A stretch of DNA of 64,000 bases from Planctomycetota bacterium (GTDB lineage: Bacteria > Planctomycetota > UBA1135 > UBA2386), in contig JBKAGP010000001.1 in the NCBI GenBank assembly GCA_046290465.1, forward strand, positions 1,408,001 to 1,472,000. The letters run 5' to 3'. The translations under genes were made by a program, and so were the position numbers. The notes below the pieces were generated by a model, which did not search any database, was not told the origin of the DNA, and saw only the letters and a list, made by a program, of their open reading frames with translations. This document shows positions 18,665 through 62,057 of this stretch, piece after piece (within the stretch, counting starts at the first letter, position 1; every line of letters begins with the position of its first letter).

Positions 18665-20011
18665 TCACCGGATCGCGAACCGGTCGCCGGTCGGGTTCCA
18701 GGCGAGCACCACGTCGGCCTCGCTGGCGCGGTCGGCCGGCAACAGGCGCAGACCGGGCGCCACCGCGCGCGCCGGGCCGCTCGGGTAGATCCAGGCGCGT
18801 TCCTCGCTCCAGTCGACGGCGTAGCCGACCAGCGCGACCGTTCGCCCCGATGCCGCGGCCTCGCGCAGCAACGTGCCGTGCTCGGTCAGGGCCGCCAGCA
18901 GCGCCGTCACCCGGTCGGCGTCCCGCAGGCGCCGCCGGATCGTCTTGTCGCTGCGAACGGCGAACGGCACCAACAGCAGCACCACCGTCCCGACCGCGAG
19001 CAGCCGGCGCCATCCCGGGGCGCGTCGCCACGTCGCGACCCAGAGCCCGACGACGAACGCCGCGGCGGGCAGCGCCGGCAGCAGCAGCCGGTCGAGCTTG
19101 TCCCAACGAAAGCCCCACAGCCCGACGCTCGACGGCAGCAGCGCGAGCGCCGCGACCGCGGCGGCCGCGAGCCACGCCGCGCGGCGCCGCGGCGCGCGCC
19201 GCCACCACACCACCGCTGCCGCGAGCAGCAGCAGTTCGGCGAACGGCGAGGTCACGGCGTGCCGCGGCAACCACAGCGCCTTGCACCGCAGCAGCGGATC
19301 GACCGACGCGGCCCACCAGTCGGCACCGGCCGGCAGGTAGGGCGCGCTCGCCTCGCCGACCGTGCACCAGAGCCACAGGTAGCCAGCAGCCAGGGCCCCG
19401 TGGGCGGCGATCGGCAGCAGGCTGCGGCCGCCGCGTCGATGCAGCAGGGACCAGGCGACGATCGCGAGCAGCCAGACCACCGCCTCCTCCTTGGCCAGCA
19501 GGGCTGCCGCGTGCAGCGCGATCGAGGCCAGCAACCGCGCGCGCCCACCGCGCCGCAGCCAGCCTTGCCAGCACCACAGCGCACCGAGCCCCGACGTCGT
19601 CGCCAGCAGCGAGGGCAGCGACGACACCCAGCTGACCGCGATCGCCTGTGCCGGATGCACGGTCAGCCACAGCGCCGCGAGACCGCCGGCAGCGGCGCTG
19701 CGGGTCGCGCGCCGCAGCAGCGCGAACAGCAGCAGGGCCGAGGCCAGGCTGCACGCGATCGCGAGCAGGTGCAGCGCCGTCGCGTGCAGGCCGAAGCACG
19801 CCCGCGAGCCGACCATCAGCAGATGGAAGGACGGCCGCAGGTAGCCGAACGGCTGCCGCGAGAGCGCGTGCTCGAGCAGGCCCCCGCTGCGGCCGGCGTC
19901 CTCGAGCCAGAGGAAGTCGTCGGTGACGAAGCCGCTCGCCGGCACGCGGTGGTAGAGCCACGCGTGCGCGACCAGCACGGCGAGCAGCCAGGCGACGCGA
20001 CGGCGCCGCAT
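18665..20011 (-). CDS. Multi-pass membrane protein, probable GT-C fold glycosyltransferase
   Basis: TDDF after the first TM, YLRP, HPAQAIAVSW, LAKEEA. Confidence 0.7.
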   Translation of the reverse strand: MRRRRVAWLLAVLVAHAWLYHRVPASGFVTDDFLWLEDAGRSGGLLEHALSRQPFGYLRPSFHLLMVGSRACFGLHATALHLLAIACSLASALLLFALLRRATRSAAAGGLAALWLTVHPAQAIAVSWVSSLPSLLATTSGLGALWCWQGWLRRGGRARLLASIALHAAALLAKEEAVVWLLAIVAWSLLHRRGGRSLLPIAAHGALAAGYLWLWCTVGEASAPYLPAGADWWAASVDPLLRCKALWLPRHAVTSPFAELLLLAAAVVWWRRAPRRRAAWLAAAAVAALALLPSSVGLWGFRWDKLDRLLLPALPAAAFVVGLWVATWRRAPGWRRLLAVGTVVLLLVPFAVRSDKTIRRRLRDADRVTALLAALTEHGTLLREAAASGRTVALVGYAVDWSEERAWIYPSGPARAVAPGLRLLPADRASEADVVLAWNPTGDRFAIR

Positions 20012-21519
20012 CAGCCGGGCAGCAGGCCCGAGCGCAGCTTGACGTAGGCGCGCAGGCCCTGGCGGCCGCCCTCGCGACCGAAGCCGCTCTCCTGGAAGCC
20101 ACCGAACGGCGACGCCGCGTCGAAGCGGTTGAAGGTGTTGTTCCAGACCACGCCCGCTCGCATCCGTTCGGCGAGCCACAGGATGCGCGCCCCCTTGTCG
20201 GTCCAGATGCCGGCCGACAGGCCGTAGCTGGTGTCGTTGGCCTTCTGCACCGCCTCCTCGGGCGTGCGGAACGTCGACACCGACAGCACCGGGCCGAAGA
20301 TCTCCTCGCGCGCGATGCGGTGCGTCTGCGACACGTCGGTGAACATCGACGGCGCGAACCAGTAGCCCTTGCGCGGCAGCTGGCAGTTCGACTGGTGCAG
20401 CTGCGCCCCCTCGGCGACGCCGGCGTCGACCAGTTCACGGATCCGCTGCAGCTGCTCCTTGCTGTGGATCGCGCCCATGTCGGTGTTCTTGTCGAGCGGG
20501 TCGCCGACGCGGATGCGCGCCATGCGGCGCTGCAGCTTGGCGACGAACGCGTCGTGCACGCCCTCCTGCACCAGCAGCCGCGAGCCGGCGCAGCAGACGT
20601 GGCCCTGGTTGAAGAAGATGCCGCGCACGACGCCTTCGACCGCCTGGTCGAGCGCCGCGTCCTCGAACACCAGGTGCGCAGCCTTGCCGCCGAGCTCGAG
20701 CGTCAGGTCGACGCCGCGGCCGGCGACCGCCTTCTGGATCTGCTTGCCGACCTCGGTGCTGCCGGTGAACGCGACCTTGTCGAGGTCGGGGTGCCGCACC
20801 AGCGCCTGGCCGGTCGCGCCGTCGCCGGTGATCACGTTGACGACCCCGTCCGGCAGGCCCGCCTGCCGGAAGACGTCACACAGCCGCAGCGCGGTCAGCG
20901 GCGACGTCTCCGCCGGCTTGATCACGACCGTGTTGCCGGCGGCCAGCGCCGGCGCGATCTTCCACGCGGCCATCAGCAGCGGGAAGTTCCACGGGATGAT
21001 CTGGCCGACGACGCCGACCGGCTCGACCCGTTCGCCCGGGAACAGCAGTTCCAGCTTGTCGGCCCATCCGGCGTGGTAGAAGAAGTGCTGCGCCGCCAAC
21101 GGCACGTCGACGTCGCGGGTCTCCTTGATCGGCTTGCCGTTGTCGAGCGTCTCGAGCACCGCGAACTCGCGGGCGCGCTCCTGCAGCACGCGCGCGATCC
21201 GGTACAGGTAGCGCGCGCGGTCGTCGCCGGACAGCCGTCGCCAGCCGGGCAGGGCCTGCTTCGCCGCCTGCACCGCGAGGTCGACGTCCTTGTCGTTGGC
21301 CTGCGCGACCCGACTGAGCGTCTGCTCGGTGGCCGGATTGTCGGTGGCGAAGTAGCGGCCCGACTTCGGCCGCACGAACGCGCCGCCGACGAACAGTCCG
21401 TAGCGGTCGTCGATCGCGACGTGGTCGGTCGCCTCGGGAGCCGGCGCGTAGTCCCACGCCGCGCCGAACGTCAGCTCGGGGCGCTTGCTGCGGCGCGCCT
21501 TCTTGTCGGGGTTGGCCAT
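20011..21519 (-). CDS. Aldehyde dehydrogenase, full-length catalytic chain
   Basis: PWNFP, KPAE, FTGST, LELGGK, NQGHVCCAG, EEIFGP. Confidence 0.95.
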   Translation of the reverse strand: MANPDKKARRSKRPELTFGAAWDYAPAPEATDHVAIDDRYGLFVGGAFVRPKSGRYFATDNPATEQTLSRVAQANDKDVDLAVQAAKQALPGWRRLSGDDRARYLYRIARVLQERAREFAVLETLDNGKPIKETRDVDVPLAAQHFFYHAGWADKLELLFPGERVEPVGVVGQIIPWNFPLLMAAWKIAPALAAGNTVVIKPAETSPLTALRLCDVFRQAGLPDGVVNVITGDGATGQALVRHPDLDKVAFTGSTEVGKQIQKAVAGRGVDLTLELGGKAAHLVFEDAALDQAVEGVVRGIFFNQGHVCCAGSRLLVQEGVHDAFVAKLQRRMARIRVGDPLDKNTDMGAIHSKEQLQRIRELVDAGVAEGAQLHQSNCQLPRKGYWFAPSMFTDVSQTHRIAREEIFGPVLSVSTFRTPEEAVQKANDTSYGLSAGIWTDKGARILWLAERMRAGVVWNNTFNRFDAASPFGGFQESGFGREGGRQGLRAYVKLRSGLLPG

Positions 21520-24419: not shown

Positions 24420-25727
24420 GTGAGCCAACCCGCCCCTGACCGAGACCACCTCGAAGCCCTGCGCCTGCTCGGCAGTTCGCCCGAAGAGCCACTGCAGGTC
24501 GACGGCGTGCCGGTCGCCGAACTCGCCAGCCGGTTCGGCACGCCGCTCTACGTGTTCTCGGCAACGGCGCTACGCGCGCGCGTCGCCGCCGTGCAGCAGG
24601 CGCTCGGGCCGCGCTTCGAGCTGTTGTGGTCGGTCAAGGCCAACCCGTCGCTCGCGGTGACACGCGTGTTGCGCGAGGCCTCGGTCGGCGCCGAGATCGC
24701 CTCCACCGGCGAACTCGAGGTGGCGCTCGCGGCGGGGCACGACGCGGCGTCGCTGCGGTTCGCCGGCCCGGGCAAGACCGACCTCGAACTCGACGACGCG
24801 CTGGCGCGCGGCCTCGGCACGTTCCACGTCGAGTCGCTCGACGAGCTGCAGGCGCTGGCCGACCTCGCGTCGACGCGCGACCTGGTCGCCAACGTCGCGC
24901 TGCGCGTCAACCTGCCGCAACAGCTCGCCGGCTCGCGCATGCGCATGGGCGGCCGCAGCAGCCGCTTCGGCATCGACGTCGAACAGGTGCCCGAGATCGT
25001 GCGCGCGATCGGCGCGACCGCCTCGCTGCAGCTGCGCGGTCTGCACGTCTACGGCGGCACCCAGGGCTTCGACGCCGACGCCTTCGTCGCCCACGCCCGC
25101 GCGCTGTGCGAACGGGCCGCTGCCTGGGAGCGCGAGCTGTCGGTGCGCTTCGACGAGATCGACCTGGGCGGCGGCTTCGGCGTCGCGGTGTTCGCCGGCG
25201 ACCCGACCTTCGACCTCGCCGCCGCCGGCGCCGGCCTGCGAGACCTGCTCGACGAGCACGACCGCGACGGCCGGCGCTGGTTCGTCGAACTCGGCCGCTA
25301 CCTCGCCGCCCCCGCCGGCGTGTTCGTGACCCGCGTCGTGCGCACCAAGACCAGCGGCGACCAGCTGCACGCGGTGCTCGACGGCGGCATGCACCACGCG
25401 GCGGCGCCGGCCGGCCTCGGCTCGGTGCTGCGCCGCCCGCCGCTGCTGGTCGCCGCCGAGCCGCGCCAGGGAGCGCGACGCCCGGTCACCCTCGGCGGTC
25501 CGCTGTGCACCCCGGCCGACCAGTTCTGCGACCAGCTCGAGCTGCCGCCGCTGCACCGCGGCGACCTGGTGGCCGTGCTGCACGCCGGCGCCTACGGCCT
25601 GACCTACAGCCCGTCCCGCTTCCTCAGCCACCCGAGCCCCGCCGAGATCCTCGTCGACACCGGCCAGGCCCGCATCGTGCGCACCCGCGGCCTGCCCACC
25701 GACGCCCTCCAAGACCAACAAGAGTAG
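24420..25727 (+). CDS. Type III PLP-dependent decarboxylase (LysA/BtrK-like)
   Basis: SVKAN, GPGK, ALRVN, DLGGGF, ELGRY, GPLCTPAD, GAYG. Confidence 0.88.
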   Translation: MSQPAPDRDHLEALRLLGSSPEEPLQVDGVPVAELASRFGTPLYVFSATALRARVAAVQQALGPRFELLWSVKANPSLAVTRVLREASVGAEIASTGELEVALAAGHDAASLRFAGPGKTDLELDDALARGLGTFHVESLDELQALADLASTRDLVANVALRVNLPQQLAGSRMRMGGRSSRFGIDVEQVPEIVRAIGATASLQLRGLHVYGGTQGFDADAFVAHARALCERAAAWERELSVRFDEIDLGGGFGVAVFAGDPTFDLAAAGAGLRDLLDEHDRDGRRWFVELGRYLAAPAGVFVTRVVRTKTSGDQLHAVLDGGMHHAAAPAGLGSVLRRPPLLVAAEPRQGARRPVTLGGPLCTPADQFCDQLELPPLHRGDLVAVLHAGAYGLTYSPSRFLSHPSPAEILVDTGQARIVRTRGLPTDALQDQQE

Positions 25728-25802
25728 CCGTACGGTACGCGGTTCATCCTCCAACTCCCGCTTGCGGAAGTTGGAGGATGAACCGCGTACCGTACGGCTA
25801 CT
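25723..25802. repeat. 80-bp inverted doublet with 34-bp perfect arms; REP/REPIN-like family B
   Basis: AGTAGCCGTACGGTACGCGGTTCATCCTCCAACT (25723-25756) and its exact reverse complement (25769-25802). Confidence 0.95.
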
Positions 25803-27987
25803 TTCGTGGGCGCAGCCTGGAGTAGCGCGGGTTGCCGGGGTTGCGCTGCTCGTACTCCGGCAGCAGGAAGGCGTCGTCGGGCAGCTGCAAGAGGGCGGCG
25901 TCGAGCCGTTCGACCAGCTCCGGATCGTCCTGCAGGGCCTTGCCGCGCAGCGCCTCGGCGGTCTGCATCGCGCTGATGCTGAGGCCGTCGACGGCGGCGG
26001 CGGCGAGCGGCGCGATGCGGAACACCTGCTGCAGTTCCGAGAACGTCAGGTCGAGGTCCCCCGCCTGCAGCGCCAGCCGCGCCAGGCCGCCGTGCGCCAT
26101 CGCCTCGTAGTGCGCGCCGTCCTCGCTCTGGGTGCGCTCGCGGTAGCTCGCGAAGTGACGCAGCGCCTGGTTGTAGCTGGCGCGCGCGTCGTCGGGATGC
26201 GAACGGCGCCGGTGCTGCTCGGCCGCGACCAGCGACGCGTAGCCCGCGAACCACGGCAACACCGCCGGCGCATCGTCCTTGGCCAGCAGCTTGGCGTATT
26301 CCTTCTCCATGCGCGCGACGCCCCCCTGGCGCAGCCACAGGCCGCGCAGGCGATGGTGCAGCGGCGCCGCCGCCGGGAACCGCTCGACCCCCTTCTGCAG
26401 CACGACCTCGGCGTCCGGCGAACGAAAGAACTCGAGGAAGTCGTAGTGGTCGGCGACGTTCTGCGGCGTGCCGAGCGGATGCTTCATCAACAGCGTGTAG
26501 GCCGTGTGCACGTCGGTGGTCCACGCACCGGGCCACTCCTTCTTGTTGCGCACGGCGTCCTGGATCGCCGCCTGGCGACCGTGTGCGAACAGCGTCAGCA
26601 GCTCCTTGGCGAGCCGGCCGGGGGCGTCCGGCGGCAGGTTCGGCATCGCCTCGGCGGCGAGCTGGAAGGCCCGCTGCTGCTGCCCGCGCTGCGAACGCAT
26701 CACCGCCTCGAGCGCCTTCGGTCGCCAGCCGTCGGCGCCGGCCGCGACCGCCGCGTCGAGGTGGCGCTTGGCGTCCTCCAGCAGCAGCGTGCGCTGGGCC
26801 TGGGCCAGACGTACGCCACCGCGAACGCGCGCCACCTCCACCTCGAGCGCCTGCAGCAGGCTGCTCTCGGCGACGTCGAGCCGCGCCTGTGGATCGTCGG
26901 GCTGCCTGGCGAGCGCCTGGTCGCGCTTCTGCGCCTCCGCGGCGACGTCGGTGATGCCCGAGTAGGCCGGCCCGACCAGCACGCTCTGCCACTTCTGGCC
27001 ATCGATCGCCGAGGTGCCGTTCTCGAGCCCGCGGTGCGCCGTCGCCAGCGTGCGCGCCCGCGTGCTGCGATCGCGGAAGCGATCGAGCGCGTCGACCAGG
27101 CCGCTGCGCTCGTCGGCCGCCAGCGGGCCGCGCAGCGTGTCGGCGATCAACTCGACCGCGAGCAGGTCGTCGGATTGCTGCATGCCTTCGCGCGCACGCC
27201 GCGCGAGGTCCGGGTCGAGGCCGTAGGCGGCCTGGCGCAGCAGCTCGAGCGGGACCTTGTCGCCGGCGGCGATGCCGAGCTCGAGCATGCGCTTCTTCAG
27301 CTCAGCGCTCGCCTTGGCGAACTCGGCCTCGATCGCCTCGCGATCCGCGCTGTCGGGACTCTCGATGCGCTCCTTCAGCGAACGGTCCCCCTTGACGATC
27401 GGCGGCGCCTGGATCTTGCGGTTCTTGATGCCGTTCTCGAGCGACTCCAGCACCGACTTGACGTCCCACGTGTAGAACACGTCGTAGACCTCGCTGCCGT
27501 CGAGTTCGACCATGATGTGGCGCGGCGAGATCCGCTTGCCGTCGAGGAACTTCTCGTAGACCAGCGGCTCCAGCGCGATGTGCTCGCCGCAGGTCACGCA
27601 GCCGAGCCGCGGGCACGGGATGCGGCGGCCCTGGTCGTCGTAGTCGCGCGGGTTGTGGCGGTAGACCGAGGCCATCACGCACACGTACGGCTCGAACAGC
27701 TTGGCGACCTCGGGGTCGCGGTAGCGCACGCCGGCGTAGTGCTCGCTGGCGATCTCCCCGTCCATGTTGACGCAGACCAGGATCGGCTTCTTGGTCTGCT
27801 GCGACAGCCGCACCGCGTCGTCCCAGGTGCGCTGCCAGCGGATCAGCGGCGGCTTGTTCCAGTCCTCGGCGGTCGGCGCGTACCACATCTGCTCGGGCAC
27901 CAGGCCCTGCGGCTGCGGCACGCCCTCCTGCGCTGCGGCGAGCGCACAGAACGACAGGGAGATCAGCGGGGTCAGCAGTCGACGCAT
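25798..27987 (-). CDS. Secreted protein with a thioredoxin-like N-terminus and a helical/TPR-like C-terminus
   Basis: Signal peptide MRRLLTPL...AAA-Q; IRWQRTWDDA...KKPILVCV; helical repeats. Confidence 0.7.
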   Translation of the reverse strand: MRRLLTPLISLSFCALAAAQEGVPQPQGLVPEQMWYAPTAEDWNKPPLIRWQRTWDDAVRLSQQTKKPILVCVNMDGEIASEHYAGVRYRDPEVAKLFEPYVCVMASVYRHNPRDYDDQGRRIPCPRLGCVTCGEHIALEPLVYEKFLDGKRISPRHIMVELDGSEVYDVFYTWDVKSVLESLENGIKNRKIQAPPIVKGDRSLKERIESPDSADREAIEAEFAKASAELKKRMLELGIAAGDKVPLELLRQAAYGLDPDLARRAREGMQQSDDLLAVELIADTLRGPLAADERSGLVDALDRFRDRSTRARTLATAHRGLENGTSAIDGQKWQSVLVGPAYSGITDVAAEAQKRDQALARQPDDPQARLDVAESSLLQALEVEVARVRGGVRLAQAQRTLLLEDAKRHLDAAVAAGADGWRPKALEAVMRSQRGQQQRAFQLAAEAMPNLPPDAPGRLAKELLTLFAHGRQAAIQDAVRNKKEWPGAWTTDVHTAYTLLMKHPLGTPQNVADHYDFLEFFRSPDAEVVLQKGVERFPAAAPLHHRLRGLWLRQGGVARMEKEYAKLLAKDDAPAVLPWFAGYASLVAAEQHRRRSHPDDARASYNQALRHFASYRERTQSEDGAHYEAMAHGGLARLALQAGDLDLTFSELQQVFRIAPLAAAAVDGLSISAMQTAEALRGKALQDDPELVERLDAALLQLPDDAFLLPEYEQRNPGNPRYSRLRPRK

Positions 27988-28051
27988 GGGCGGCAGGATA
28001 GCCGAAGCCCTGGCCGCGCGTGTCGCATGTGCGTCATTCGCGCGTCGACGT

Positions 28052-28864
28052 TCAGCAGTCGACCAGCATCTCGTCGAGTCCGCGCCGCGCCCGCCAGCCA
28101 CCGAGCAGCGACACGTCGCGCGGCCGCAGCGGGTCCTGGCACTCGATGGAATCGAGCGCCTCGGTCGAAAGGCCCTGCACGGCGCACAGCCGCTGGGCCA
28201 ATTGCCACCGCGAGACCCGTTCGGGACCGGGCAGATGGAACACATTTGGTCCATCGGGGTCGACCACCGCCTCGACCAGCGCAAAGGCCGCGTCGGCGGC
28301 GTGCAGCGGCGTGCGGTACTCGTTGGTGAACAGGCCGAACGGCCGCGGTTCGGCGATCGCCGCGCGCACCGACGCGGTGGCGCCGCGGCCGAGCGGGTCG
28401 GCGCCGAACAGCAGCGGCAGACGCACGACCCGACCGCCGTGCACGCGCACGCGGTCCTCGCCCTGCGCCTTGCTGGCGCCGTAGACCGACAGCGGCGAGG
28501 GGGGCGCGTTCTCGGCGTACGGCGCGCTGCGGCCGTCGAACACCAGATCGGTCGACGCGAACAGCAGCCGCGCCCCGAACCGTTCGGCGAACCGCTCGGG
28601 CAGCCAGGTGTTGGCGCGCGCGGCCGCGCCCGGATCGCGGGTGCACTCGCCGATGCGCGACATCGCCGCCAGGTGGACCACCAGGTCCGGCTGCAGGCCT
28701 TCGACCACCGCCGCCACCATGCCGGGCGCCAGCAGGTCGACCGCGGCGTCGCCGCCAGAACGGGAGGTCGTCAGGGCGACGTGGCCGGCGGCCTGCACGG
28801 CGGCGACGGTGTAACGACCGAGGAAGCCCTCGGAGCCGGTCACGAGAATGCGGAGGGCGGCCAT
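28052..28864 (-). CDS. RmlD-like SDR (dTDP-4-dehydrorhamnose reductase family)
   Basis: GSEGFLG, HLAA, STDLVFDG, YGASK. Confidence 0.88.
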   Translation of the reverse strand: MAALRILVTGSEGFLGRYTVAAVQAAGHVALTTSRSGGDAAVDLLAPGMVAAVVEGLQPDLVVHLAAMSRIGECTRDPGAAARANTWLPERFAERFGARLLFASTDLVFDGRSAPYAENAPPSPLSVYGASKAQGEDRVRVHGGRVVRLPLLFGADPLGRGATASVRAAIAEPRPFGLFTNEYRTPLHAADAAFALVEAVVDPDGPNVFHLPGPERVSRWQLAQRLCAVQGLSTEALDSIECQDPLRPRDVSLLGGWRARRGLDEMLVDC

Positions 28865-41389: not shown

Positions 41390-42220
41390 TCAGTTTTCGT
41401 GGTGCGGGCTGTCGAGGCGCGGGCCTTCGATGCCGGGCGTCAGGATCTCCTCGACGTCGAGCACCGCGCAGTGGCAGCCGACGTCGAGCAGCCTCGCAAG
41501 CGACGGGCTGGTGCGCTGTTCGTCGCCGGAGATCCACTCCTTGACGTAGGTGCCGTGCTGGCAGACGACGCGCAGCTCGAGGGTCTGCTCGTCGCGGACG
41601 TCGAGTGCGAGCACGCGCAGGCGGCGCTCGCGCTCGAGGTCGGCACGGCGATGCGCGACGCGCTGCGGTGTGCGCTGCACGATGCCGCCAGCGAACGCAC
41701 GCACCGCGGCCAACCGTTCGTCGCTCGGCATCGACTGGATCGCGACATCGGCGCGGTAGACCTTGTCGAAGTGCGTCTCCTTCCAGTAGACGACGCGCTT
41801 GCGCTCGACGCGCTCGAACGGGGCCAGCTCGATCGCGCCCTCGGCGCGCTGTTCGATGTCGCGGCGCAGCTCTTCGAGGTCGAGGTTGGGGTTGCGCGCG
41901 CCGACCACCTCGAACACGAACGGTCGGCCCTGGCCGAGCATCAGCACGTCGATGTCCTCGCGGCCAGCACCGTGGAACTTGCCGAGTTTGGCCTGCATCT
42001 GCGGCACCATGCGGCGGCCGATCAGCTCCTGGACCGAATCCTTGGTCAGCTTGCCGAAGCCCTCGCAATGCTGGCAGCCGCGGCGGCGCCGGCGGTCGCC
42101 CTTGCACTTGGGGCAGTAGAAGATCGTCTGCGGCAGCCCCCGCCTGAGCTTGCGGTAGCGGCTCTCGAGGTAGAGGTTGCTGCGCGGACGCGGCTTGTCA
42201 TCCGGGACGGACTGGGACAT
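41390..42220 (-). CDS. pus10: tRNA pseudouridine synthase Pus10-like, catalytic domain only
   Basis: RYRKLRRGLPQT, FHGAGREDIDVLMLG-GRPFVFE, QRTPQRVAHRRADL, GTYVKEWISGD..RTSPSL. Confidence 0.88.
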   Translation of the reverse strand: MSQSVPDDKPRPRSNLYLESRYRKLRRGLPQTIFYCPKCKGDRRRRRGCQHCEGFGKLTKDSVQELIGRRMVPQMQAKLGKFHGAGREDIDVLMLGQGRPFVFEVVGARNPNLDLEELRRDIEQRAEGAIELAPFERVERKRVVYWKETHFDKVYRADVAIQSMPSDERLAAVRAFAGGIVQRTPQRVAHRRADLERERRLRVLALDVRDEQTLELRVVCQHGTYVKEWISGDEQRTSPSLARLLDVGCHCAVLDVEEILTPGIEGPRLDSPHHEN

Positions 42221-43801: not shown

Positions 43802-43840
43802 AAGTTGGAGGATGAACCGCGTACCGTACGGCTACTTTCG
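43802..43840 (-). repeat. Single arm of repeat family B
   Basis: aagttggaggatgaaccgcgtaccgtacggctactttcg is identical to 25768-25806. Confidence 0.95.
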
Positions 43841-46414
43841 GGTGGCTCGGGTGCGGGCTTCCTGGGCGAGCGGGTGGTCGTCGGGGATGTGGTCGGTGAA
43901 GGACTGGACGGCGCGGGCGGCGGCTTCGGTGGCGGGGCTGGGGCGGCCGGCGGCGTCGAGTGCGCGGGCTCGCAGCAGCCAGGTGAAGCCGGGGAACTGC
44001 GGCGGCAGCTGCTCGTGGTCGGCGCGCTCGAGGCGGCGCAGCAACTCGCCGGTGATCTCGTCGGCGCCGTCGACGTCGCCGGCGGCGAGGCGCGCCATCG
44101 CCAGGTTGTGGCCGGCGTTGAACGTCCCGGGATGCACCTCGCCGCGGTCGGCGCTGACCGCCTCGAACGCGCGCGCCATCAGCGTCGCCGCACCCCCGGC
44201 GTCGCCGCGCTGGCTCTTGGCCGCGGCGAGCGCCTGCAGCACGTCCATGGTGCGGTAGTCGCGCTCGCCGAACGTGCGTTCGCAGCGCACCAGCAGGTCG
44301 GTCGCCAGCTCGTGCAGCTCTTCGAACGCACGCTGCGCGTAGAGCACCTTGAGCAGGTGGTAGCCGCAGCCGATCGTGATCTGGTGGTCGGGCCCGACCA
44401 TCGCGTCGTACTCGGCCATCATCTCGCGGTGCTTCTGCGCCGCCTCGTCGAGCCGGCCGAGCTCGCGCCAGACCTCGGCCAGGTTGTCCTCGATCTGCAG
44501 CCGCGACGCCGCCGGCACGTTGCCGTCCCGACAGCGCTGCACCGCGGCCGACAGCGTGCGCTCGGCAGCCTCGAACCGGTCGAGGTGCAGCTGCAGGTTG
44601 CCGAGGTTGTGCATCGTCACGATGGTGTCGTCGTGCTCGGGTCCGAGCAGCCGTTCGCGCGCCGCCAGCACCTCGACGAACAGGTCCATCGCCTCGCGCA
44701 GCCGGCCCTCGTGCCGCAGCACGTAGGCACGGTGGTGCTGCACCGTCCACCACAGGGCGTCGTCGGCCGCCTCTCCCGGGAACTGCGCTACCATCGCGTC
44801 AACCACCGCCCGCGCCGCACCGGTCTTGCCCTGCTCTCGCAGCGCGACCAGCAGGTCGACCGCGCAGCGCACCGCCCGCGGCGAACCAGCACCCTCCACC
44901 TGCAGCCATAGCTCGCGCGCGCGCCGCAGGTGCGGCTCGGCGACCGCCGGCAGCGACAGGCTGCGGTAGGTGCCGCCGATCAGCTGCTGCAGCTCGGCCT
45001 CGATCTCCGGATCCTCGAAGGTCTCGTCGGCGAGGTTCGCCGCCGCCACGTCCAGCGCCTCGCGCACCGTGTAGTCGCGGCCGCGCGCCGACATCAGCGA
45101 CGACTCGGCCAGGAAGTCCTGGGCGAACCGGGCGACCCGCCTGGACACACGCCCGCGCCGCTCGAGTTCGACGTTCTGCTCGCGCAGCACCTGCTGGCCG
45201 CGTTCGAGCTCGGCGTTCTGCGCCAGCACGACGACCACGCCGACCGCCAGCAGCGCGACGATCGTCGCCAGCGACGCGACCAGCCCGCGCCGCCGCCGCG
45301 CGAACATGCGCATCTGGTAGAACGTGCTCGGTGCCCGCGCCCGCACCGGCCGCTCCTCGAGGAACGCGCGCAGGTCCTCGGCGAACTCCAGCACCGAGCC
45401 GTAGCGATCGTCGGGGTCGCGACGCAGCGCCTTCTGCAGCACGACCTCGAGGTCGCGGTCGGCGCCGCGCACCACCGTCGACAGCCGCGGCGCGTCCTGG
45501 TTCTCGACCGTCTCGGCGACGACCAGCGGCGTGGTCTCGTCGAACACGAACGGCCGGCGCCCGGCCAGCAGCTCGAACAGCACGACGCCGAGCGAGTAGA
45601 TGTCGCTGCGCAGGTCGACCAGCCGACCGCGCAGCTGCTCGGGGCTCATGTAGTGCAGCGTGCCGAGCACGATGCCGCCCTCGGTCAGGTCGGCGTCGCC
45701 GGCCATGCTGCGCGCGATGCCGAAGTCGATCACCTTGGTGCGGCCGCCGTCGTCGACCAGCACGTTCTGCGGCTTGAGGTCGCGGTGCACGACCCCCTGC
45801 AGGTGGCCGTGGTGCACCGCGTCGCAGACCTGCAGGAACAGCTCGATGCGCTGGCGCTGGTCGAGGTCCTGGTCGCGGCTGTGGTGGATCAGGTCGCGCG
45901 CGCCGGGCACCAGCTCCATCGCGAACCACGGCAGCTCGATGTCGCCCGCCTCCTGCACGCCGACGGCGAACACCTGCGCGATGCCGGGGTGGCGCAGGTT
46001 GCCGAGCACCTCGGCCTCCCACTGGAAGCGTCGCACCGCCTGCTCGCTGGCCAGCGCCAGCGACAGCACCTTGAGCGCGACCTTGCGCCGCGGTCGGTCC
46101 TGTTCGGCCTCGTAGACGGTGCCCATGCCGCCGCTGCCGAGCACGCGCTGCAGCTCGAACGCGCCGACCCGGGCGCCGACGCCGACCTTGCGCTGCGGCA
46201 TGAACAGCTCGGCGCCGCGCTCGAGCAGGCTGGCCAGGTCGGTGCGCTGTTCGTCGCAGGCCAGCAGCTCCTCGACGTCGGCGCGCAGGGTGGCGTCGCC
46301 GTCGCACTGCTGCGCCAGCACCGCGTCCCGTTCGCCCGACGGCAGATCGACGACCTGCTCGAACAGGTCCCGGACCCGCCGGAACGACGCCGCGCCGGAC
46401 GGATCAGGCGTCAT
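43832..46414 (-). CDS. Ser/Thr protein kinase with a TM segment and TPR repeats
   Basis: GSGGMG, HRDLKPQN, DFG, GTLHYMSPE; LGPEHDDT-type TPRs; start MTPDP at 46414. Confidence 0.93.
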   Translation of the reverse strand: MTPDPSGAASFRRVRDLFEQVVDLPSGERDAVLAQQCDGDATLRADVEELLACDEQRTDLASLLERGAELFMPQRKVGVGARVGAFELQRVLGSGGMGTVYEAEQDRPRRKVALKVLSLALASEQAVRRFQWEAEVLGNLRHPGIAQVFAVGVQEAGDIELPWFAMELVPGARDLIHHSRDQDLDQRQRIELFLQVCDAVHHGHLQGVVHRDLKPQNVLVDDGGRTKVIDFGIARSMAGDADLTEGGIVLGTLHYMSPEQLRGRLVDLRSDIYSLGVVLFELLAGRRPFVFDETTPLVVAETVENQDAPRLSTVVRGADRDLEVVLQKALRRDPDDRYGSVLEFAEDLRAFLEERPVRARAPSTFYQMRMFARRRRGLVASLATIVALLAVGVVVVLAQNAELERGQQVLREQNVELERRGRVSRRVARFAQDFLAESSLMSARGRDYTVREALDVAAANLADETFEDPEIEAELQQLIGGTYRSLSLPAVAEPHLRRARELWLQVEGAGSPRAVRCAVDLLVALREQGKTGAARAVVDAMVAQFPGEAADDALWWTVQHHRAYVLRHEGRLREAMDLFVEVLAARERLLGPEHDDTIVTMHNLGNLQLHLDRFEAAERTLSAAVQRCRDGNVPAASRLQIEDNLAEVWRELGRLDEAAQKHREMMAEYDAMVGPDHQITIGCGYHLLKVLYAQRAFEELHELATDLLVRCERTFGERDYRTMDVLQALAAAKSQRGDAGGAATLMARAFEAVSADRGEVHPGTFNAGHNLAMARLAAGDVDGADEITGELLRRLERADHEQLPPQFPGFTWLLRARALDAAGRPSPATEAAARAVQSFTDHIPDDHPLAQEARTRATRK

Positions 46415-47003
46415 GCTCCGCTCCGAGGTCGAGTTCGCGCACCAGGAACGCGCGCGCCGTGCGCCAGCTGCGTTCGACCGAGCGCAGCGACGTGCCGAGC
46501 GCGGCGGCCGCGGCGCGGTTGTCGAGCCCGCCGAAGAAACGCAGTTCGACCAGTTCGGCGAGCTGCGGATCGAGGGCCGCGAGCCGCGCCAGGATCTCGT
46601 CGATGGCGAGCAGGCTCGCGGCGTCGTCGCGCACCGCGACCAGGTCGGCGTCGAACGCGACGCGCCGGTCGGCCGCCCGTTTCTGGGCCTTGCGCGCACG
46701 GGCATGGTCGACCAGCACCCGCCGCATCGCGCGCGCGGCAACCCGCAGGAAGTGGCCGCGGTCGTCGTAGCCGCCACCGGGCGCGACCAGGCGCAGGAAC
46801 GCTTCGTTCATCAACGCGGTCGGCTGCAGCGTGTGGCTGCTGCGTTCGCTACCCATCATGCGGCCCGCCAGCCGATGCAGTTCGTCGTAGACCAACGGGA
46901 ACAGCTGGTCGGCGGCGCCGGCCTCACCGGCGCCGACCGCGCGCAGCAGGCGGGTCGTATGATCCCGCGTCGGCTGGTCGGGTTCCGGGGCGGCCTCCAC
47001 CAT
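46404..47003 (-). CDS. ECF sigma factor, TIGR02999-like kinase-associated type
   Basis: LFPLVYDELHRLA, HTLQPTAL, RRVLVDHAR, VELRFFGGL, VERSWRTARAFL. Confidence 0.93.
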   Translation of the reverse strand: MVEAAPEPDQPTRDHTTRLLRAVGAGEAGAADQLFPLVYDELHRLAGRMMGSERSSHTLQPTALMNEAFLRLVAPGGGYDDRGHFLRVAARAMRRVLVDHARARKAQKRAADRRVAFDADLVAVRDDAASLLAIDEILARLAALDPQLAELVELRFFGGLDNRAAAAALGTSLRSVERSWRTARAFLVRELDLGAEHDA

Positions 47004-51332: not shown

Positions 51333-54300
51333 ATGAGCACCGAACTGCCTGAGAAATACGATCCGCAGACGCTCGAGCCGGCCGTGACCAAGCGGTGGCT
51401 GGACGCGAAGGCCTTCGCCGCGACGCCCGACCAGCGGGACGATCGCTACGTCGTCATGATGCCGCTGCCCAACGTCACGGGTGCGCTGCACATGGGCCAC
51501 GCGATGGACAACGTCATGCAGGACCTGCTGACGCGCTGGCACCGCATGCGCGGCGACAACTCGCTGTGGCAGCCGGGGCTCGACCACGCCGGCATCGCGA
51601 CCCAGGCGGTCGTCGAGAAGCGCCTGAAGGAGATCGAGGGCAAGACGCGGCACGACATCGGCCGCGAGGCCCTGGTCGAACGCATCCACGAGTGGGCCGA
51701 CCAGTCCAAGCAGCGCATCGTGTCGCAGCAGCAGGGCATGGGCTGCTCGTGCGACTGGGACCGTTCGCGGTTCACGATGGACGAGGTGTGCGCGCGCTCG
51801 GTGCGGCACACGTTCTTCAAGATGTTCCGCGACGGGCTGATCTTCCGCGGCAACCGGCTGGTCAACTGGGACTGCGCGCTGCAGACCGCGGTGGCCGACG
51901 ACGAGCTCTACAAGGAGGCCGTCGCCGGCAAGTTCCACTACTTCCGCTACCCGATCGTCGACCCGGCCGACGGCGGCCCGACGCACGTGGCGATCGCGAC
52001 CACGCGCCCGGAGACGATGCTCGGCGACACCGCCGTGGCCGTGCACCCCGATCCCAGGGGCGCGCTCGAGCAGGCGATCGCGGCGCAGCAGGCCAAGGTG
52101 GCCGCCGCGCCAGAGAAGGAGAAGGCCGACGCCGAGCGGGAGCTCGAGCGCCTGCAGGCGCGCATGGCCGACGTGATCCCGACGCTGGTGGCGATCTCGG
52201 ACCTCGCCAAGAACGGCGGCAAGGTGCGGCTGCCGCTGATGGAGCGCGAGATCCCGATCATCGTCGACGAGTGGGCCGACCCGACGCTCGGCACCGGCTG
52301 CGTCAAGATCACGCCGGCGCACGATCCCAACGACTACGACGTCTGGCAGCGCCACCAGGAGATCGGCGCGGTCAACATGCTGAACCCCGACGGCACCGTG
52401 AGCCAGAAGGGCGGCAGGTATGCGGGCCTCGATCGCTTCGAGGCGCGCAAGCAGGTGCTGAAGGACCTCGAAGCGGCCGGCCTGCTCGATCGCATCGAGG
52501 ACCGGCACATGGAGATCGACCACTCCGACCGCTCCAAGACCATCATCGAGCCGTACCTGTCCAAGCAGTGGTTCGTGAACATGGGCGACGTCGAGGGCGG
52601 CGTGCTGATGGGCCGCGGCACCCAAAAGGAGTTCCAGAGTCCGGGTCTGGCGCAGGCGGCGCTCGACGCGACCGCGGGCACGCTGCCGCCGTTCGCAGAC
52701 GGCACGCCGCGCAAGCAGGTCGGCTTCCATCCCGACCCGGAGCGCTACCGCAACATGCACGACCGCTGGCTCGGCGAGAAGCGCGACTGGTGCATCAGCC
52801 GGCAGCTCTGGTGGGGTCACCGGATCCCGGTCTGGCGCGGCGACATGGACGCGCAGAAGCTGCTGATGCTGGAGCCGATGCTGCAGGGCCAGCTCGAGCG
52901 CGACGACGTCTGCGCGTGGATCCTGCTGCCGGACGGCAACCGCCTGTCGCCGACCGACGCGTTCGCGCACCTGAAGGGCCCCAACGCGCCGGCAACGGTC
53001 GAGGTGCAGATCTGCTTCCTCGACGCGCAGAACGACGAGACCATCGGCCCGATGCTGCAGAGCGCCGGCCTCGAGCTGGATCCGGACGTGCTCGACACGT
53101 GGTTCAGCTCGGCGCTGTGGCCGCACAGCACGCTGGGCTGGCCCAACCCGGACGACGCCAGGGTCGGCGCGGGGCAGACTTCGCTCGCCGGCGCCGACGG
53201 CCGGCCGGACGCGCTGAGCTGCTACTACCCGGGCAGCTGCCTGGTGACCGGCCGCGACATCATCACGCTGTGGGTCGCGCGCATGATCATCGGCGGGCTC
53301 TACAACCTCGGCGACGTGCCGTTCACCGACGTGTTCCTGCACGCGACGATCCTCGACGGCAAGGGCGTGCGCATGTCGAAGTCGAAGGGCAACGGCATCG
53401 ACCCGCTCGACATCATCCACCGCTACGGCGCCGACGCGCTGCGCTACGTGGTCTGCGAGCTGCAGACCGGCACGCAGGACGTGCGCCTACCGGTGCAGGC
53501 GATCTCGCCGTTCACCGAGGAGGGCGAGGACGAGCGCCTCGTCGACCTGGCGACGGCCGAGGCGGGCCCCTACCTCGGCACGTTCGTCGACCCGGTGACG
53601 AAGCAACCGATGGACCTGATCGGGCAGTACGCGAACGAGGGCATCACGCCCGCCAAGGCGACCAGCGATCGCTTCGCGGTCGGTGCGAACTTCTGCAACA
53701 AGCTGTTCAATGCGGCGCGCTTCGCGTTCTTGAACCTCGACGGCACGACCTACGAGCCGCTCGACGTGGCGCAGCTGCCGGTCGAGGATCGCTGGGTGCT
53801 GTCACGCCTGCACCGCGCGATCGCGACCGTGCACGGCCATCTCGAGGGCTACAACCCATCGGCGGCGATCCAGACGGCGCGCGACTTCTTCTGGAGCGAG
53901 CTGTGTGACTGGTATCTCGAGATGCTGAAGCCGCGCATGAAGGACGGCGCCGACCCGGCGTCGAAGCGCGTCGGCCAGCAGGTGCTCGCCGCAGTGCTCG
54001 ACCAGACGCTGCGGCTGCTGCACCCGTTCGTGCCGTTCTTGACCGAGACGCTGTGGACCCGGCTCGACGAGCTGGCGCCCGAGCGCGGCGTCGCGACGAA
54101 GTTCGCAACGAGCGACCTGCTGGTGCACGCCACGTGGCCGCGGGCCGACGAAGGTTGGCAGGCTGCCGACGTCGAGGCGAACGTCGCCACGATGCAGGGT
54201 TGGTGCGTCGCGATCCGCGAGGCGCGCGCCCGCTACCAGGTGGCGCCGCGCGACCGCCTGGCGGCGCGCTTCCAGGCCGACGGCGCCAGCGCTCTGGTGC

Positions 54301-54647
54301 TGCGCGCGACGCTGCCGCTGCTGGCCAACATGGCGGGCCTGGACATGGGCGACGCGGGCGAGTCCGCGATCGGCCCGGACCAGCAGCGCACCAAGGACAG
54401 CGCGGTGGTCGTGCACGGCGACAGCAAGGCGTTCCTGCTCGGTGTCGTCGACCTCGACAAGGAGCGGCAGAAGCTCGAGAAGGAGCAGAAGACGCTCGAG
54501 GGCCGCATCGGCGGCATCGAGAAGAAGCTCGCCAACGAGGGCTTCCTCGCCAAGGCTCCCGAGGCCGTGGTCAAAAAGGAGCGCGCCAACCTCGAGGCCC
54601 TGCAGACGCAGCTCGCCGGCGTGCGCCAGAGCCTCGCCGAGCTCTAG
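51333..54647 (+). CDS. valS: Valine--tRNA ligase
   Basis: PNVTGALHMGH, DHAGIATQ, TTRPET, DWCISRQLWWGH, RMSKSKGN, C-terminal coiled coil. Confidence 0.97.
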   Translation: MSTELPEKYDPQTLEPAVTKRWLDAKAFAATPDQRDDRYVVMMPLPNVTGALHMGHAMDNVMQDLLTRWHRMRGDNSLWQPGLDHAGIATQAVVEKRLKEIEGKTRHDIGREALVERIHEWADQSKQRIVSQQQGMGCSCDWDRSRFTMDEVCARSVRHTFFKMFRDGLIFRGNRLVNWDCALQTAVADDELYKEAVAGKFHYFRYPIVDPADGGPTHVAIATTRPETMLGDTAVAVHPDPRGALEQAIAAQQAKVAAAPEKEKADAERELERLQARMADVIPTLVAISDLAKNGGKVRLPLMEREIPIIVDEWADPTLGTGCVKITPAHDPNDYDVWQRHQEIGAVNMLNPDGTVSQKGGRYAGLDRFEARKQVLKDLEAAGLLDRIEDRHMEIDHSDRSKTIIEPYLSKQWFVNMGDVEGGVLMGRGTQKEFQSPGLAQAALDATAGTLPPFADGTPRKQVGFHPDPERYRNMHDRWLGEKRDWCISRQLWWGHRIPVWRGDMDAQKLLMLEPMLQGQLERDDVCAWILLPDGNRLSPTDAFAHLKGPNAPATVEVQICFLDAQNDETIGPMLQSAGLELDPDVLDTWFSSALWPHSTLGWPNPDDARVGAGQTSLAGADGRPDALSCYYPGSCLVTGRDIITLWVARMIIGGLYNLGDVPFTDVFLHATILDGKGVRMSKSKGNGIDPLDIIHRYGADALRYVVCELQTGTQDVRLPVQAISPFTEEGEDERLVDLATAEAGPYLGTFVDPVTKQPMDLIGQYANEGITPAKATSDRFAVGANFCNKLFNAARFAFLNLDGTTYEPLDVAQLPVEDRWVLSRLHRAIATVHGHLEGYNPSAAIQTARDFFWSELCDWYLEMLKPRMKDGADPASKRVGQQVLAAVLDQTLRLLHPFVPFLTETLWTRLDELAPERGVATKFATSDLLVHATWPRADEGWQAADVEANVATMQGWCVAIREARARYQVAPRDRLAARFQADGASALVLRATLPLLANMAGLDMGDAGESAIGPDQQRTKDSAVVVHGDSKAFLLGVVDLDKERQKLEKEQKTLEGRIGGIEKKLANEGFLAKAPEAVVKKERANLEALQTQLAGVRQSLAEL

Positions 54648-54898
54648 GAGCGCGTCCATGTAGTGGACACGCTGCCAACCGGGATCGCGGAAGCGGCGTG
54701 TACGCGTGCGGACAGGGCTTTGCCCGCTAGGAGCGCGTCCATGCAGTGGACGCGCTGGCCAACCGGGATCGCGGAAGCGGCGTGCACGCGTGCGGACAGG
54801 GCTTTGCCCGCTAGGAGCGCGTCCATGCAGTGGACGCGCTGGCCAACCGGGATCGCGGAAGCGGCGTGTACGCGTGCGGACAGGGCTTTGCCCGCTAG
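54644..54898 (+). repeat. Head-to-tail array of 3 family A units (83, 84, 84 bp) with single CTAG junctions
   Basis: CTAG at 54644, 54727, 54811 and 54895. Confidence 0.95.
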
Positions 54899-55023
54899 CC
54901 GGCGCGCCTCCGGACGACGGCGCCGGCCGTGCCGTTCGCCGGGTTCGCCCCGGCGATCCGACGGTCGGAGAGGTTCGTCCCGGAACCGACCTTGCGGGCC
55001 CGGAACCAACCCGACGGACCGGG

Positions 55024-55995
55024 TCAGCGCTTCAGGTCGGCGACGAGCTTTTTGAGTTCGGCGAGTTGCTGCTTGATGGCGGCCAGCTCCTTGGCGACGC
55101 CGTCGGTTGCGGTCGGCGTGGCGTCGGCGCCGACGGCCAGGTGGCCGATGGTGGTGCCCCAGCGGGCGCGCGCCAGATCGCGCTGCGGCAGCAGCGTCGT
55201 GTTCCAGTAGCCGTTCAGCGTCTCGGGGTCGACGACGGTGCCCCAGTAGCGGCCGGCGGCGGCCTTCTTCTCGCCCACTTCGACGCCGAACTCGCGCTGC
55301 TTGCCGCGACGCAGGATGCGCAGCGACATGCGGTCGCCGACCTTCTTGGCGCCGACGGCCGCGCGCAGCGACGTGTCGGTGACCGACTCGCCGCCGTCGA
55401 CTCCGAGCAGGATGTCGTTCTTGCGCAGCCCTGCCTGCTCGGCCGGACCACCCTCGGTGACGCTCAGGATCAGCACGCACGCCTTGGCATCAAGGCCGAG
55501 GTGGTCGACCAGCGGCGCCGGCACGCTGCCGACCTGCACGCCGATGTAGGGCCGCGTCTGCGGCTCCGCCTCGGCGCCCTTGACCGGGTAGCCCCACTCC
55601 CCGTCCGCGCCGGGCTTCCGCCCGAAGTGGTAGGCGAGCGGCACGTTGCGCTGCCACTGCAACGCGTAGTCGGACACCCGGCTGCCCGCAGCCAGCGGCA
55701 TCGAGCGCAGCGCCTTGGGCGCGGCCGTCGGCGCGTGCACGGTGTAGCCGTCGATGACCGTCGGACGCAGCTTGCCGCCGGCCTTCGCGGCGGCGCCGAC
55801 CTTCGAACCGTTGACGGTGATGTTGGGCACGTCGCCGTGCCAGCGGATCACGATGCGGTCGTCGCCGCGCTCGATGACGATCGACCCCGGGTCGACGGTG
55901 GCGTCGACGCCCGCGTCCTGGGCGCAGAGCGACGCATGCGGGAAGAACGGCGCGAGCAGCAGCGCGCTCGCGAACAGGTTGGATCGCAGGTTCAT
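55024..55995 (-). CDS. Secreted PDZ-domain protein
   Basis: Signal peptide; PYIGV...SVTEGGPAEQAGLRKNDILLGVDG; coiled-coil tail. Confidence 0.85.
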   Translation of the reverse strand: MNLRSNLFASALLLAPFFPHASLCAQDAGVDATVDPGSIVIERGDDRIVIRWHGDVPNITVNGSKVGAAAKAGGKLRPTVIDGYTVHAPTAAPKALRSMPLAAGSRVSDYALQWQRNVPLAYHFGRKPGADGEWGYPVKGAEAEPQTRPYIGVQVGSVPAPLVDHLGLDAKACVLILSVTEGGPAEQAGLRKNDILLGVDGGESVTDTSLRAAVGAKKVGDRMSLRILRRGKQREFGVEVGEKKAAAGRYWGTVVDPETLNGYWNTTLLPQRDLARARWGTTIGHLAVGADATPTATDGVAKELAAIKQQLAELKKLVADLKR

Positions 55996-61050: not shown

Positions 61051-61589
61051 ATGACCTCGTACACCCGCACCACGCGCGCCTGGCTCGAGCAGCGCTTCCT
61101 GATGCGCTCGGAGGCGGGCCACTACTTCGCGCACACGCCGATCTACGGCGTCGGCCACCCGGACGCCGAGCCCGGCCACGCCGCGCGGCTGTGTCGCATC
61201 TCGCGGATCCTGCGCGTGCTCGACGGCCTCGCGTTCGACACCATGCTCGACGTCGGCGGCGCCGAGGGCTACCTCGGCCATCTGGCGCAGACGATCTTCG
61301 GCGTCGAGGCCGCGACCTCCGACCTGTCGCTCGAGGCCAACCGGCGGGCGCGCGAGATCTTCGCGCTGCCGTCCGCGGCGGTCGACTGCTCGCGGAGGGC
61401 GCCGAGCAGCAGACGTTCACCGAGGAGTGCTCGGTCAAGTTCCCGCTCAGCAACGACGGCCAGCTGCGCACCGTGCGGGTCGTGCTGTCGAGCAACGAAC
61501 ACCTGCCCGACGAGGTGCAGTGGCTGCGCCTCGACCTCGCCGACGCGGCGTGCCAGGAGATCGACCTGCTGTCGCTGCGGCTGCTGTGA
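61051..61589 (+). pseudogene. SAM-methyltransferase gene broken by an apparent internal deletion or frameshift near 61390
   Basis: LDVGGAEG motif in one frame; a coding-like tail (...WLRLDLADAACQEIDLLSLRLL*) in another frame. Confidence 0.65.
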
Positions 61590-61592
61590 ACG

Positions 61593-61675
61593 CTAGGAGC
61601 GCGTCCATGTAGTGGACGCGCTGCCGACCGTGATCGCGGAAGCGGCGTGTACGCGTGCGGACGGGGCTTTGCCCG
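61593..61675 (+). repeat. Repeat family A, single copy
   Basis: Same sequence as 13777-13859, but followed by CTCG instead of CTAG. Confidence 0.95.
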
Positions 61676-61694
61676 CTCGCCCCCGGCGACCGCG

Positions 61695-62057
61695 CTACTC
61701 GCGCGGCTCGATGCCGGGACAGGTGCGTTCGACCAGACGCAAGAGCGCCGGGTCGTCGAGCAGCTCGGGCCAGAACGGCCACTCGCCGCACTTCGCCGGG
61801 CGCACCGGATAGATGCTGCAGCTCGCCTGCGCGCCGTCGCGCAAGAACACGCAGCGGTTGCCGAGGCCTTCCTTCAGGCGCGCGCCATCCGGCTGCAGGT
61901 AGCGGCTGGCGAACGCCTGCTCGTCGAGATCGAGGTGCTCGGCGATCGCCGCGCGCTCGGCGGCGCTGACGCGCACGAAGCCGCCGGGGATCGAGCAGCA
62001 GTTGCCCGACCGCCGGCAGCGGAAGCGGAACGGGAAGCCGTCGCGCTCGGTGCTCAT
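61695..62057 (-). CDS. YkgJ family cysteine-cluster (CxxCxxCC) protein
   Basis: FRCRRSGNCC, RCVFL, CSIYPVRPAKCGEWPFW, CPG. Confidence 0.9.
   Translation of the reverse strand: MSTERDGFPFRFRCRRSGNCCSIPGGFVRVSAAERAAIAEHLDLDEQAFASRYLQPDGARLKEGLGNRCVFLRDGAQASCSIYPVRPAKCGEWPFWPELLDDPALLRLVERTCPGIEPRE

Follow-up and report, generated by a model that had tools for sequence, protein, structure and literature searches.

What kind of repeat overlaps the stop codon of valS in this Planctomycetota chromosome and follows the gene head to tail, and how could it have come to lie there? In the window analysed in this study, which is the whole 64-kb stretch of DNA, a repeat of 83-84 bases is present in five copies at three loci, all on the + strand, as the original prediction had stated. 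Searches with two independent sub-patterns each returned the same five positions, with no match in any of 100 shuffled sequences (0/100), and an nhmmer profile built from the five copies recovered all of them at E <= 6.6e-27. No diverged further copies were found in the window with this profile, the next best match (18378-18457) having an E-value of 0.043. The copies, their parts, the neighbouring genes and the other sites discussed are collected in Table 1.

Table 1. Positions of the CTAG repeat copies, their flanking genes and related sites in the window.
Feature	Position	Strand	Remarks
Gene upstream of first solo copy	12740-13780	+	Secreted protein, SecDF P1-head-like domain
First solo copy	13777-13863	+	87 nt including both CTAGs
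Left CTAG of first solo copy	13777-13780	+	
Hairpin 1 of first solo copy	13782-13806	+	
Small hairpin of first solo copy	13848-13858	+	
Right CTAG of first solo copy	13860-13863	+	
Gene downstream of first solo copy	14059-15168	-	Zinc alcohol dehydrogenase family; stop 195 nt past repeat
valS, upstream of array	51333-54647	+	1104 aa, ends ...SLAEL
Array behind valS	54644-54898	+	Three head-to-tail copies: 54644-54730, 54727-54814, 54811-54898
Hairpin 1 of array copies	54649-54673, 54732-54756, 54816-54840	+	One C.A mismatch in the first
Gene downstream of array	55024-55995	-	PDZ-domain protein; stop 125 nt past array
Gene upstream of second solo copy	61051-61589	+	Methyltransferase-like, internal deletion or frameshift
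Second solo copy	61593-61679	+	Right end CTCG
Gene downstream of second solo copy	61695-62040	-	CxxCxxCC / YkgJ-like domain; start coordinate approximate
Non-repeat CTAGs that are stops (6/10)	7018, 34499, 36823, 38827	+	Coding-like third-position GC
	47674, 56071	-	Coding-like third-position GC
CTAGs away from such stops (4/10)	2999, 39812, 58263, 63130		
Single GTAG-headed copy	43802-43836		Supplies stop of kinase gene

The two solo copies, which are separated by 48 kb, show 100% identity across 85 nt and differ at one of 88 alignment columns, the sole difference being the last-but-one base, which makes the right end CTAG in the copy at 13777 and CTCG in the copy at 61593. Columns 35, 40 and 72 hold private variants in all three copies behind valS, and copies 2 and 3 have two further variants in common; both the likeness of the solo copies and the separate variants of the array had been described previously. 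As also described, adjacent array units have one CTAG in common, which can be read at 54727 and 54811. The array periods are 83, 84 and 84 nt, and Tandem Repeats Finder reported an 84-nt period, 3.0 copies and 97% matches. Since the private variants are common to all three copies, the array appears to have grown locally from one founder; it looks like local amplification rather than repeated insertion, and the near-identity of copies across the window points to recent spread, both as judged from sequence alone. Misassembly of a single copy into an array had been named as a finding that would overturn the observation, and the probability of this is close to negligible. Pairs of the three copies differ at 1-4 alignment columns, with an indel among the differences, and so are not one copy read three times, and the contig of origin has a reported length of 6,594,045 bp.

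The borders of the repeat are sharp. The left border is exactly CTAG in 5/5 copies, and the base that precedes it is A, T or G, a different one in each of the three independent left flanks. CTAG stands at both ends in four of the five copies and CTAG/CTCG in the remaining one, that at 61593, so that the description of the repeat as CTAG-bounded holds for every left end and fails at one right end; in this arrangement a tag belonging to the element and a target duplication look alike. In all five copies the AG at the left border follows a CT, and CT also closes the conserved right end of each, the CTCG copy included. Read from the left, the unit consists of the CTAG tag, one spacer base, a first hairpin with a stem of 10-11 bp, a linker, a 4-bp hairpin, GCT, and then AG or CG. 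Hairpin 1 (AGCGCGTCCA / TGGACGCGCT) begins 1 nt past CTAG, has a loop of 3-5 nt, and was seen in the RNA folds of three of the five copies, in the five-copy consensus and also when either strand was folded as DNA. Perfect stems of at least 8 bp within 3 nt of a TAG are found at only 6 of the 405 TAG sites in the window, and four of these six are repeat copies. The second hairpin, GGGC-TTT-GCCC, lies just before the right end, which on the minus strand reads as CTAG followed by a small hairpin; from its sequence, the unit looks like an outward-tagged REP/iREP pair of unlike stem-loops. The linker (~40 nt) is G+C-rich and has no stable conserved fold. Three hairpins had been proposed initially, of which only the first is robust and is retained, together with the 4-bp hairpin given here, whilst the middle stem varies, this part folding differently in each copy, and the third as drawn would leave a loop of 2 nt.

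A structured unit in this position may be a selected cis-acting RNA module of the 3'-UTR (one that stabilises the mRNA, terminates transcription without a U-tract or slows termination of translation), spread by recombination and kept for its function. This would agree with the placement of the repeat, which is always sense behind the upstream gene, with hairpin 1 starting 2 nt past the TAG at two loci and 8 nt past the TGA at the third. REPs at <16 nt from a stop codon have been reported to cause ribosome stalling and reduced translation (PMC12306157), and a role of REPs in the 3'-UTR, as terminators and as stabilisers, is also described (bioRxiv 10.64898/2026.03.23.713779). The fold itself, however, gives no sign of being under selection, since none of the 26 pairs in the consensus fold has a compensatory change (0/26) and the copy at 54644 tolerates a stem pair broken by an uncompensated C.A mismatch. 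The A/G variant, which had been thought to keep pairing, falls in a column that is unpaired in the consensus. The z-scores of the sense-strand RNA folds are weak (-0.2 to -2.0), the terminator scan of 54400-55200 returned no sites and no U-tract terminator, and Rfam 15 had no match at the gathering score across the whole window, with only noise at E <= 10 and a best sub-threshold E-value of 1.5 over the array. In addition, the host genes are unrelated (valS, the secreted SecD-head-like protein and a broken methyltransferase gene), and the recent spread suggested by the near-identical copies also speaks against a module retained for its function. A selected RNA module is therefore considered quite unlikely, and it is compatible with the REP/BIME-like explanation that is preferred below. 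No tRNA or tmRNA genes were found, and folding the downstream flanks added no information.

With regard to the genes around the repeat, all three loci were confirmed, through Pfam hits and third-codon-position GC, to lie in gaps between convergent genes, in a window for which the hand-made gene map has ~10 convergent junctions out of 48. The window has a G+C content of 71% and is a housekeeping region with several Ser/Thr kinases. It had been proposed that the CTAG contains the stop of all three upstream genes. For the SecD-head-like gene and valS this is the case, as the TAG of the left CTAG is the true stop and the coding frame (third-position GC 0.9-1.0) reaches it. At the third locus, the literal ORF 61051-61596 is indeed open as far as the CTAG and terminates in the TAG of the repeat, but the coding signal, as read from third-position GC, moves to another frame near 61350-61380, and this second frame stops at a TGA (61587-61589), 3 nt past which the copy begins. 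CTAG is thus a true stop at two of the three loci, and the remaining copy lies 3 nt behind a stop. The middle part of the methyltransferase homologues is missing from this gene, which is probably a pseudogene. The frameshifted ORF 61051-61596, with its end in the TAG of the repeat, is recorded as a protein. On its other side, 15 nt separate the copy at 61593 from the stop of the convergent gene, at 61695.

The start of the SecD-head-like gene overlaps the stop of a beta-lactamase-like gene, and the C-terminus of the encoded protein is that of a 99%-identical homologue, and is <=1 residue off those of the others. ValS has the same end residue as 7 of 40 relatives among the matches listed; the four closest relatives among these matches (76-86% identity) are one residue longer, and the named relatives are labelled Planctomycetota, the closest being 86% identical. 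As the ends of both proteins match those of homologues, the repeat lies at, or <=1 codon from, the native stop in both genes. The native protein ends leave the choice between models undecided.

The association with stop codons may be largely a consequence of where CTAG is found. The word occurs 17 times in the window, against 170 expected from mononucleotide composition or 81 from a Markov model, a depletion of 5-10 times, and seven of the 17 are borders of the repeat. The other ten are divided into those that are stops of coding-like frames and those that lie away from such stops (Table 1). Since CTAG is scarce and survives mostly as stops, an element requiring a CTAG-like word would end up on a stop codon in most cases, and no special homing is needed to account for most of the overlap. 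There are eight CTAG stops in total, of which three are convergent, with two occupied by the repeat, and five are co-directional, with none occupied. These numbers are small, and point towards selection against insertion inside operons.

The repeat had also been described as oriented with transcription, and all copies are sense behind their upstream genes. The GC skew of the + strand is negative across the whole window, however, which places all copies on one replichore, and with three loci on one replichore the orientation with genes is inseparable from the orientation with replication. Three loci cannot establish an orientation rule.

Sense orientation, tandem arrays and overlap with the ends of reading frames, in units of tens of bases, are features that the CTAG repeat has in common with MIRUs, and a MIRU-like minisatellite would have its own tiny reading frame, translational coupling at gene ends and a copy number that changes by slippage. 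The left-border TAGGAG does provide a Shine-Dalgarno-like AGGAG, followed 7 nt on by ATG-TAG in three of the five copies, although the other two have CAG in place of this, and there is no conserved frame. MIRUs are reported to be apparently mobile and to insert within operons, where they meet start codons and bring a coupled ORF (PMC12548453), whereas the CTAG repeat overlaps stops in convergent gaps, where there is no co-directional downstream gene for coupling at any locus. An origin as a MIRU-like minisatellite is for these reasons highly improbable.

A second repeat was identified in the window, with a 34-nt unit and a GTAG head, and each of its three copies supplies a TAG stop (3/3). Two of these copies form a palindrome with a 34-bp stem (-80.7 kcal/mol) that occupies the gap between the convergent genes 24420-25727 and 25798-28284, the stops of both genes being within the two GTAG heads of the palindrome, and the third is the single copy given in Table 1. 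Because GTAG is common in the window (346 sites), the stop overlap of this repeat is not explained by scarcity of the word. Overlap of stop codons by tagged repeats (REPs) is already published behaviour.

Beyond the window, the 18-nt invariant core of the CTAG repeat was matched at >=74 loci in genome contigs of unrelated taxa, and the repeat itself was present in none among the matches listed, all of which were chance matches of 18-22 nt; the core recurs by chance in G+C-rich genomes. No match to the repeat was found in plasmid and phage collections using blastn in distant mode. A search of 1.84 billion representative proteins with the frame that is open on the minus strand of the array produced 11 hits (best E = 1.4e-9), and two short hits are translations of other 26-residue tandem repeats that have a few motifs in common with the array and are a lead only. 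An 87-bp repeat of Myxococcus xanthus, considered as a possible counterpart, was dropped, the host here being a planctomycete. No CTAG-bounded or stop-codon-overlapping repeat of this kind was found in the open-access papers searched.

As to how the repeat may have moved, one possibility is a MITE of the DDE-transposase type, moved in trans by a full-length IS elsewhere in the genome, either with an IS5-type 4-bp duplication of CTAG or with an IS630/Tc1-type duplication of TA within CTAG, TA being the target preference of IS630. The presence of CTAG at both ends of 4/5 copies would be expected after a 4-bp target duplication, and there is a precedent in MITEPsy1 of Pseudomonas syringae, a non-coding element of ~100 nt (given as 100 nt) that inserts at CTAG or YTAA, with duplication, and has duplicated CTAG at its bounds (PMC3189936). 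MITEPsy1 has 18-nt inverted repeats (PMC3189936), whereas the left end of the CTAG repeat and the reverse complement of its right end match at 7-8 of 25 positions, in agreement with the earlier view that terminal inverted repeats are absent. The single orientation of all copies also argues against a DDE MITE, as does the right end of the second solo copy, which reads CTCG although the rest of this copy is identical to the first. Moreover, no transposase gene, of DDE type or other, and no Y1/HUH gene was recognised by Pfam among the 52 ORF translations of the 64-kb window. Movement as a DDE MITE is accordingly rated very unlikely. The original prediction had favoured an HUH/REP-like or IS110-like element over a DDE MITE; the first part of this is partly supported, as REP/HUH anatomy fits better given the lack of inverted ends, the tag with its hairpin, the CT borders, the single orientation and the position at gene 3' ends, and no IS110-specific features were seen.

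Among HUH-related systems, IS200/IS605-derived palindrome-associated elements resemble the CTAG repeat in having no inverted ends, no evident duplication and a strand-specific orientation, and, under the mechanism proposed below, in being inserted 3' of a short target word that their own 3' end can resemble. They have similar subterminal hairpins at both ends, unlike the CTAG repeat.

The comparison with the REP and BIME-2 elements of E. coli is more extensive. In both cases a tetranucleotide tag stands beside a G+C-rich hairpin, the elements are extragenic and found at the 3' ends of genes (in convergent gaps at 3/3 loci here), inverted ends are lacking and no classical target duplication is evident, and units that in the CTAG repeat may be read as composite follow each other head to tail and are homogeneous within a locus, BIME-2 being described as present in multiple copies in tandem, with good conservation inside each locus (PMC3333891). 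The RAYT nuclease TnpA(REP) is reported to bind the single-stranded tagged hairpin (PMC3333891, PMC8266576) and to cleave at CT 5' or 3' of the REP with the tag as a guide (PMC8266576), the dinucleotide CT being given as the sole requirement for cleavage, and strand transfer as able to assemble tandem BIMEs (PMC3333891). The same CT is found at the borders of the CTAG repeat. With the RAYT of S. maltophilia, binding and cleavage are reported to persist, at a reduced level, when the tag is mutated to CTAG, tag positions 3 and 4 being the essential ones (PMC8266576).

There are also clear differences from these systems. The tag is CTAG in 5/5 copies and not GTAG, although positions 2-4 agree, and the unit has one long and one 4-bp hairpin instead of the two comparable REPs of BIME-2. 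The palindromic tag is common to adjoining units, so that, unlike in BIME-2, no flanking linker is needed, and the unit of 83-84 nt is longer than REPs of 20-40 nt. The host is a planctomycete rather than E. coli, and no RAYT gene, which in REP systems is flanked by the same repeats (REPtron), was seen in the 64-kb window. REPs reach high copy numbers across a genome (more than ~100), and the CTAG repeat has five copies in 64 kb. GTAG-tagged palindromic repeats were described by Di Nocera et al. (2013) and are reported there in Planctomycetes (PMC3733652). Like the CTAG repeat, they lie between convergent or, in their case, also co-directional ORFs, and the stem of hairpin 1 is within their range of 6-13 bp (PMC3733652). 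Their units are nevertheless of 20-40 nt, the tag variants listed for them retain G at position 1, the word 'CTAG' does not appear in the text, and head-to-tail REP dimers are given as absent or rare in most genomes (PMC3733652).

Taking these comparisons together, the CTAG repeat is best read as a variant of the known REP/BIME kind and not as a new class. The chance that it is a non-autonomous, BIME-2-like element of the wider REP/BIME world, in a Planctomycetota chromosome, is judged to be about even. It is filed as a variant and not as a full member, since it lacks the GTAG tag that defines the family, and its link to a RAYT is putative.

Under the BIME-2-like reading, the repeat is probably cut at CT by a putative Y1 HUH nuclease of RAYT type. 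A nuclease of the RAYT/TnpA(REP) type would bind the tagged hairpin in single-stranded DNA and cut after CT, the mobile piece would run from the AG of the left CTAG through the right-end CT, and this piece would be joined 3' of the CT within a CTAG-like target. As the piece starts at AG and is joined 3' of the target CT, the left junction would always read CTAG, as it does. The new CT brought by the right end would make head-to-tail growth possible, and the CTCG at 61676-61679 would need no mutation, since the right-hand dinucleotide is read as flank and not as part of the element. The valS array would then have arisen by local amplification of one founder, comparable to BIME-2 in E. coli. Insertions would last only in convergent gaps, where no promoter or operon is broken, and a hairpin 2-8 nt past the stop may act as a 3'-end stabiliser and/or as a brake on translation termination. 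CT alone is insufficient as a target, because two of the three right flanks read AG despite the rarity of CTAG, and further specificity or selection must therefore be assumed.

A bolder form of this explanation is that the repeat represents a third class of REP 'tag' beside GTAG and CGTC, namely the palindrome CTAG, moved by a putative, dedicated Y1 HUH nuclease of Planctomycetota, and this is considered unlikely. CTAG would in that case be the CT cleavage site, the AG guide and the TAG stop codon at once. Being the same on both strands, the tag could serve two adjoining units, and each insertion would recreate its own target, which would account for head-to-tail arrays, rare among GTAG REPs. 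The nuclease would, in effect, home to stop codons of the form C+TAG.

If the BIME-2-like reading holds, tagged REP/BIME elements would be extended to a palindromic CTAG tag and to a phylum that has been little studied for such repeats. It would also provide a simple and testable reason for small repeats being found on stop codons, namely that the target word has become scarce and most of its remaining sites lie at such codons. Repeats such as these break metagenome assemblies and mislead gene callers. For the organism itself, the array places a stable hairpin within reach of the ribosome at the end of valS, an essential gene, and work on the REPs of E. coli suggests that such a hairpin can lower translation or stabilise the transcript.

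In three copies of the CTAG-bounded element, the left border, TAGGAG, yields the motif AGGAG, which is followed 7 nt further on by ATG-TAG, a start-stop pair located at the tip of the first hairpin. All three forward frames hold TAG in two copies of 87 nt with a terminal CTAG (beginning at 13777 and 54644). The two 84-nt array copies, carrying CAG, lack both the ATG-TAG pair and the three-frame TAG. Across the window, CTAG is 5–10 times rarer than expected, with 17 sites observed against 81–170 expected. For the 49 ORFs whose third-position GC resembles that of coding sequence, a list that includes a few antisense shadows (e.g., 947–1381 and 1718–2080), the stop codon is TGA in 27, TAG in 21 and TAA in one.

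At the 61593 copy, the element's TAG terminates a 181-aa ORF which results from alteration of a methyltransferase-like gene, the middle part of the gene being absent and the frame changing near 61350–61380. This ORF is already recorded in the public protein set, with a 6,739-bp contig as its source.

A second repeat family in the window, with a 34-nt unit headed by GTAG, also overlaps stop codons. Its inverted pair forms a palindrome with a 34-bp stem that occupies the whole gap between two convergent genes, both of which have their TAG stops inside the two GTAG heads, and the single copy provides the TAG stop of a kinase gene. As GTAG is frequent in the window (346 sites), the overlap with stops in three out of three cases is not explained by scarcity of the word.

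Positions of the repeats and of neighboring genes and ORFs in the window
Feature	Position	Detail
CTAG element copies with ATG-TAG	13777–13863; 54644–54730; 61593–61679	
GTAG-headed repeat	25722–25803	inverted pair
GTAG-headed repeat	43802–43836	single copy
Kinase gene	43832–46777	
Methyltransferase-like ORF	61051–61596	
Stop-start overlap	12740–12743	ATGA
18-nt repeat	14421–14512	5.1 copies, 97% identity
Partial aldehyde dehydrogenase ORF	16480–17346	288 aa
Full-length aldehyde dehydrogenase	20011–21519	
Pus10-domain ORF	41390–42220	E = 9e-56

Elsewhere in the window, the stop of a beta-lactamase-family gene overlaps the start of the SecD-head-like gene, an arrangement that points to translational coupling of the two. 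The minus-strand gene of the alcohol dehydrogenase family contains internal repeats of an 18-nt unit, which in frame encode a repeat of six residues. The partial aldehyde dehydrogenase ORF, whose profile match is limited to positions 9–232 of 461, adjoins a full-length paralogue, and may be a gene fragment. Another ORF strongly matches the C-terminal domain of Pus10, a pseudouridine synthase family that is chiefly archaeal and eukaryotic.

Minus-strand translation of the array shares motifs with two proteins of the public set, P0128 and P0129 (E = 3e-6 and 1e-5, respectively, against the whole library), which are short, predicted, and built of 26-residue tandem repeats. Both may be the translated form of related ∼78-nt tandem elements carried by other genomes.
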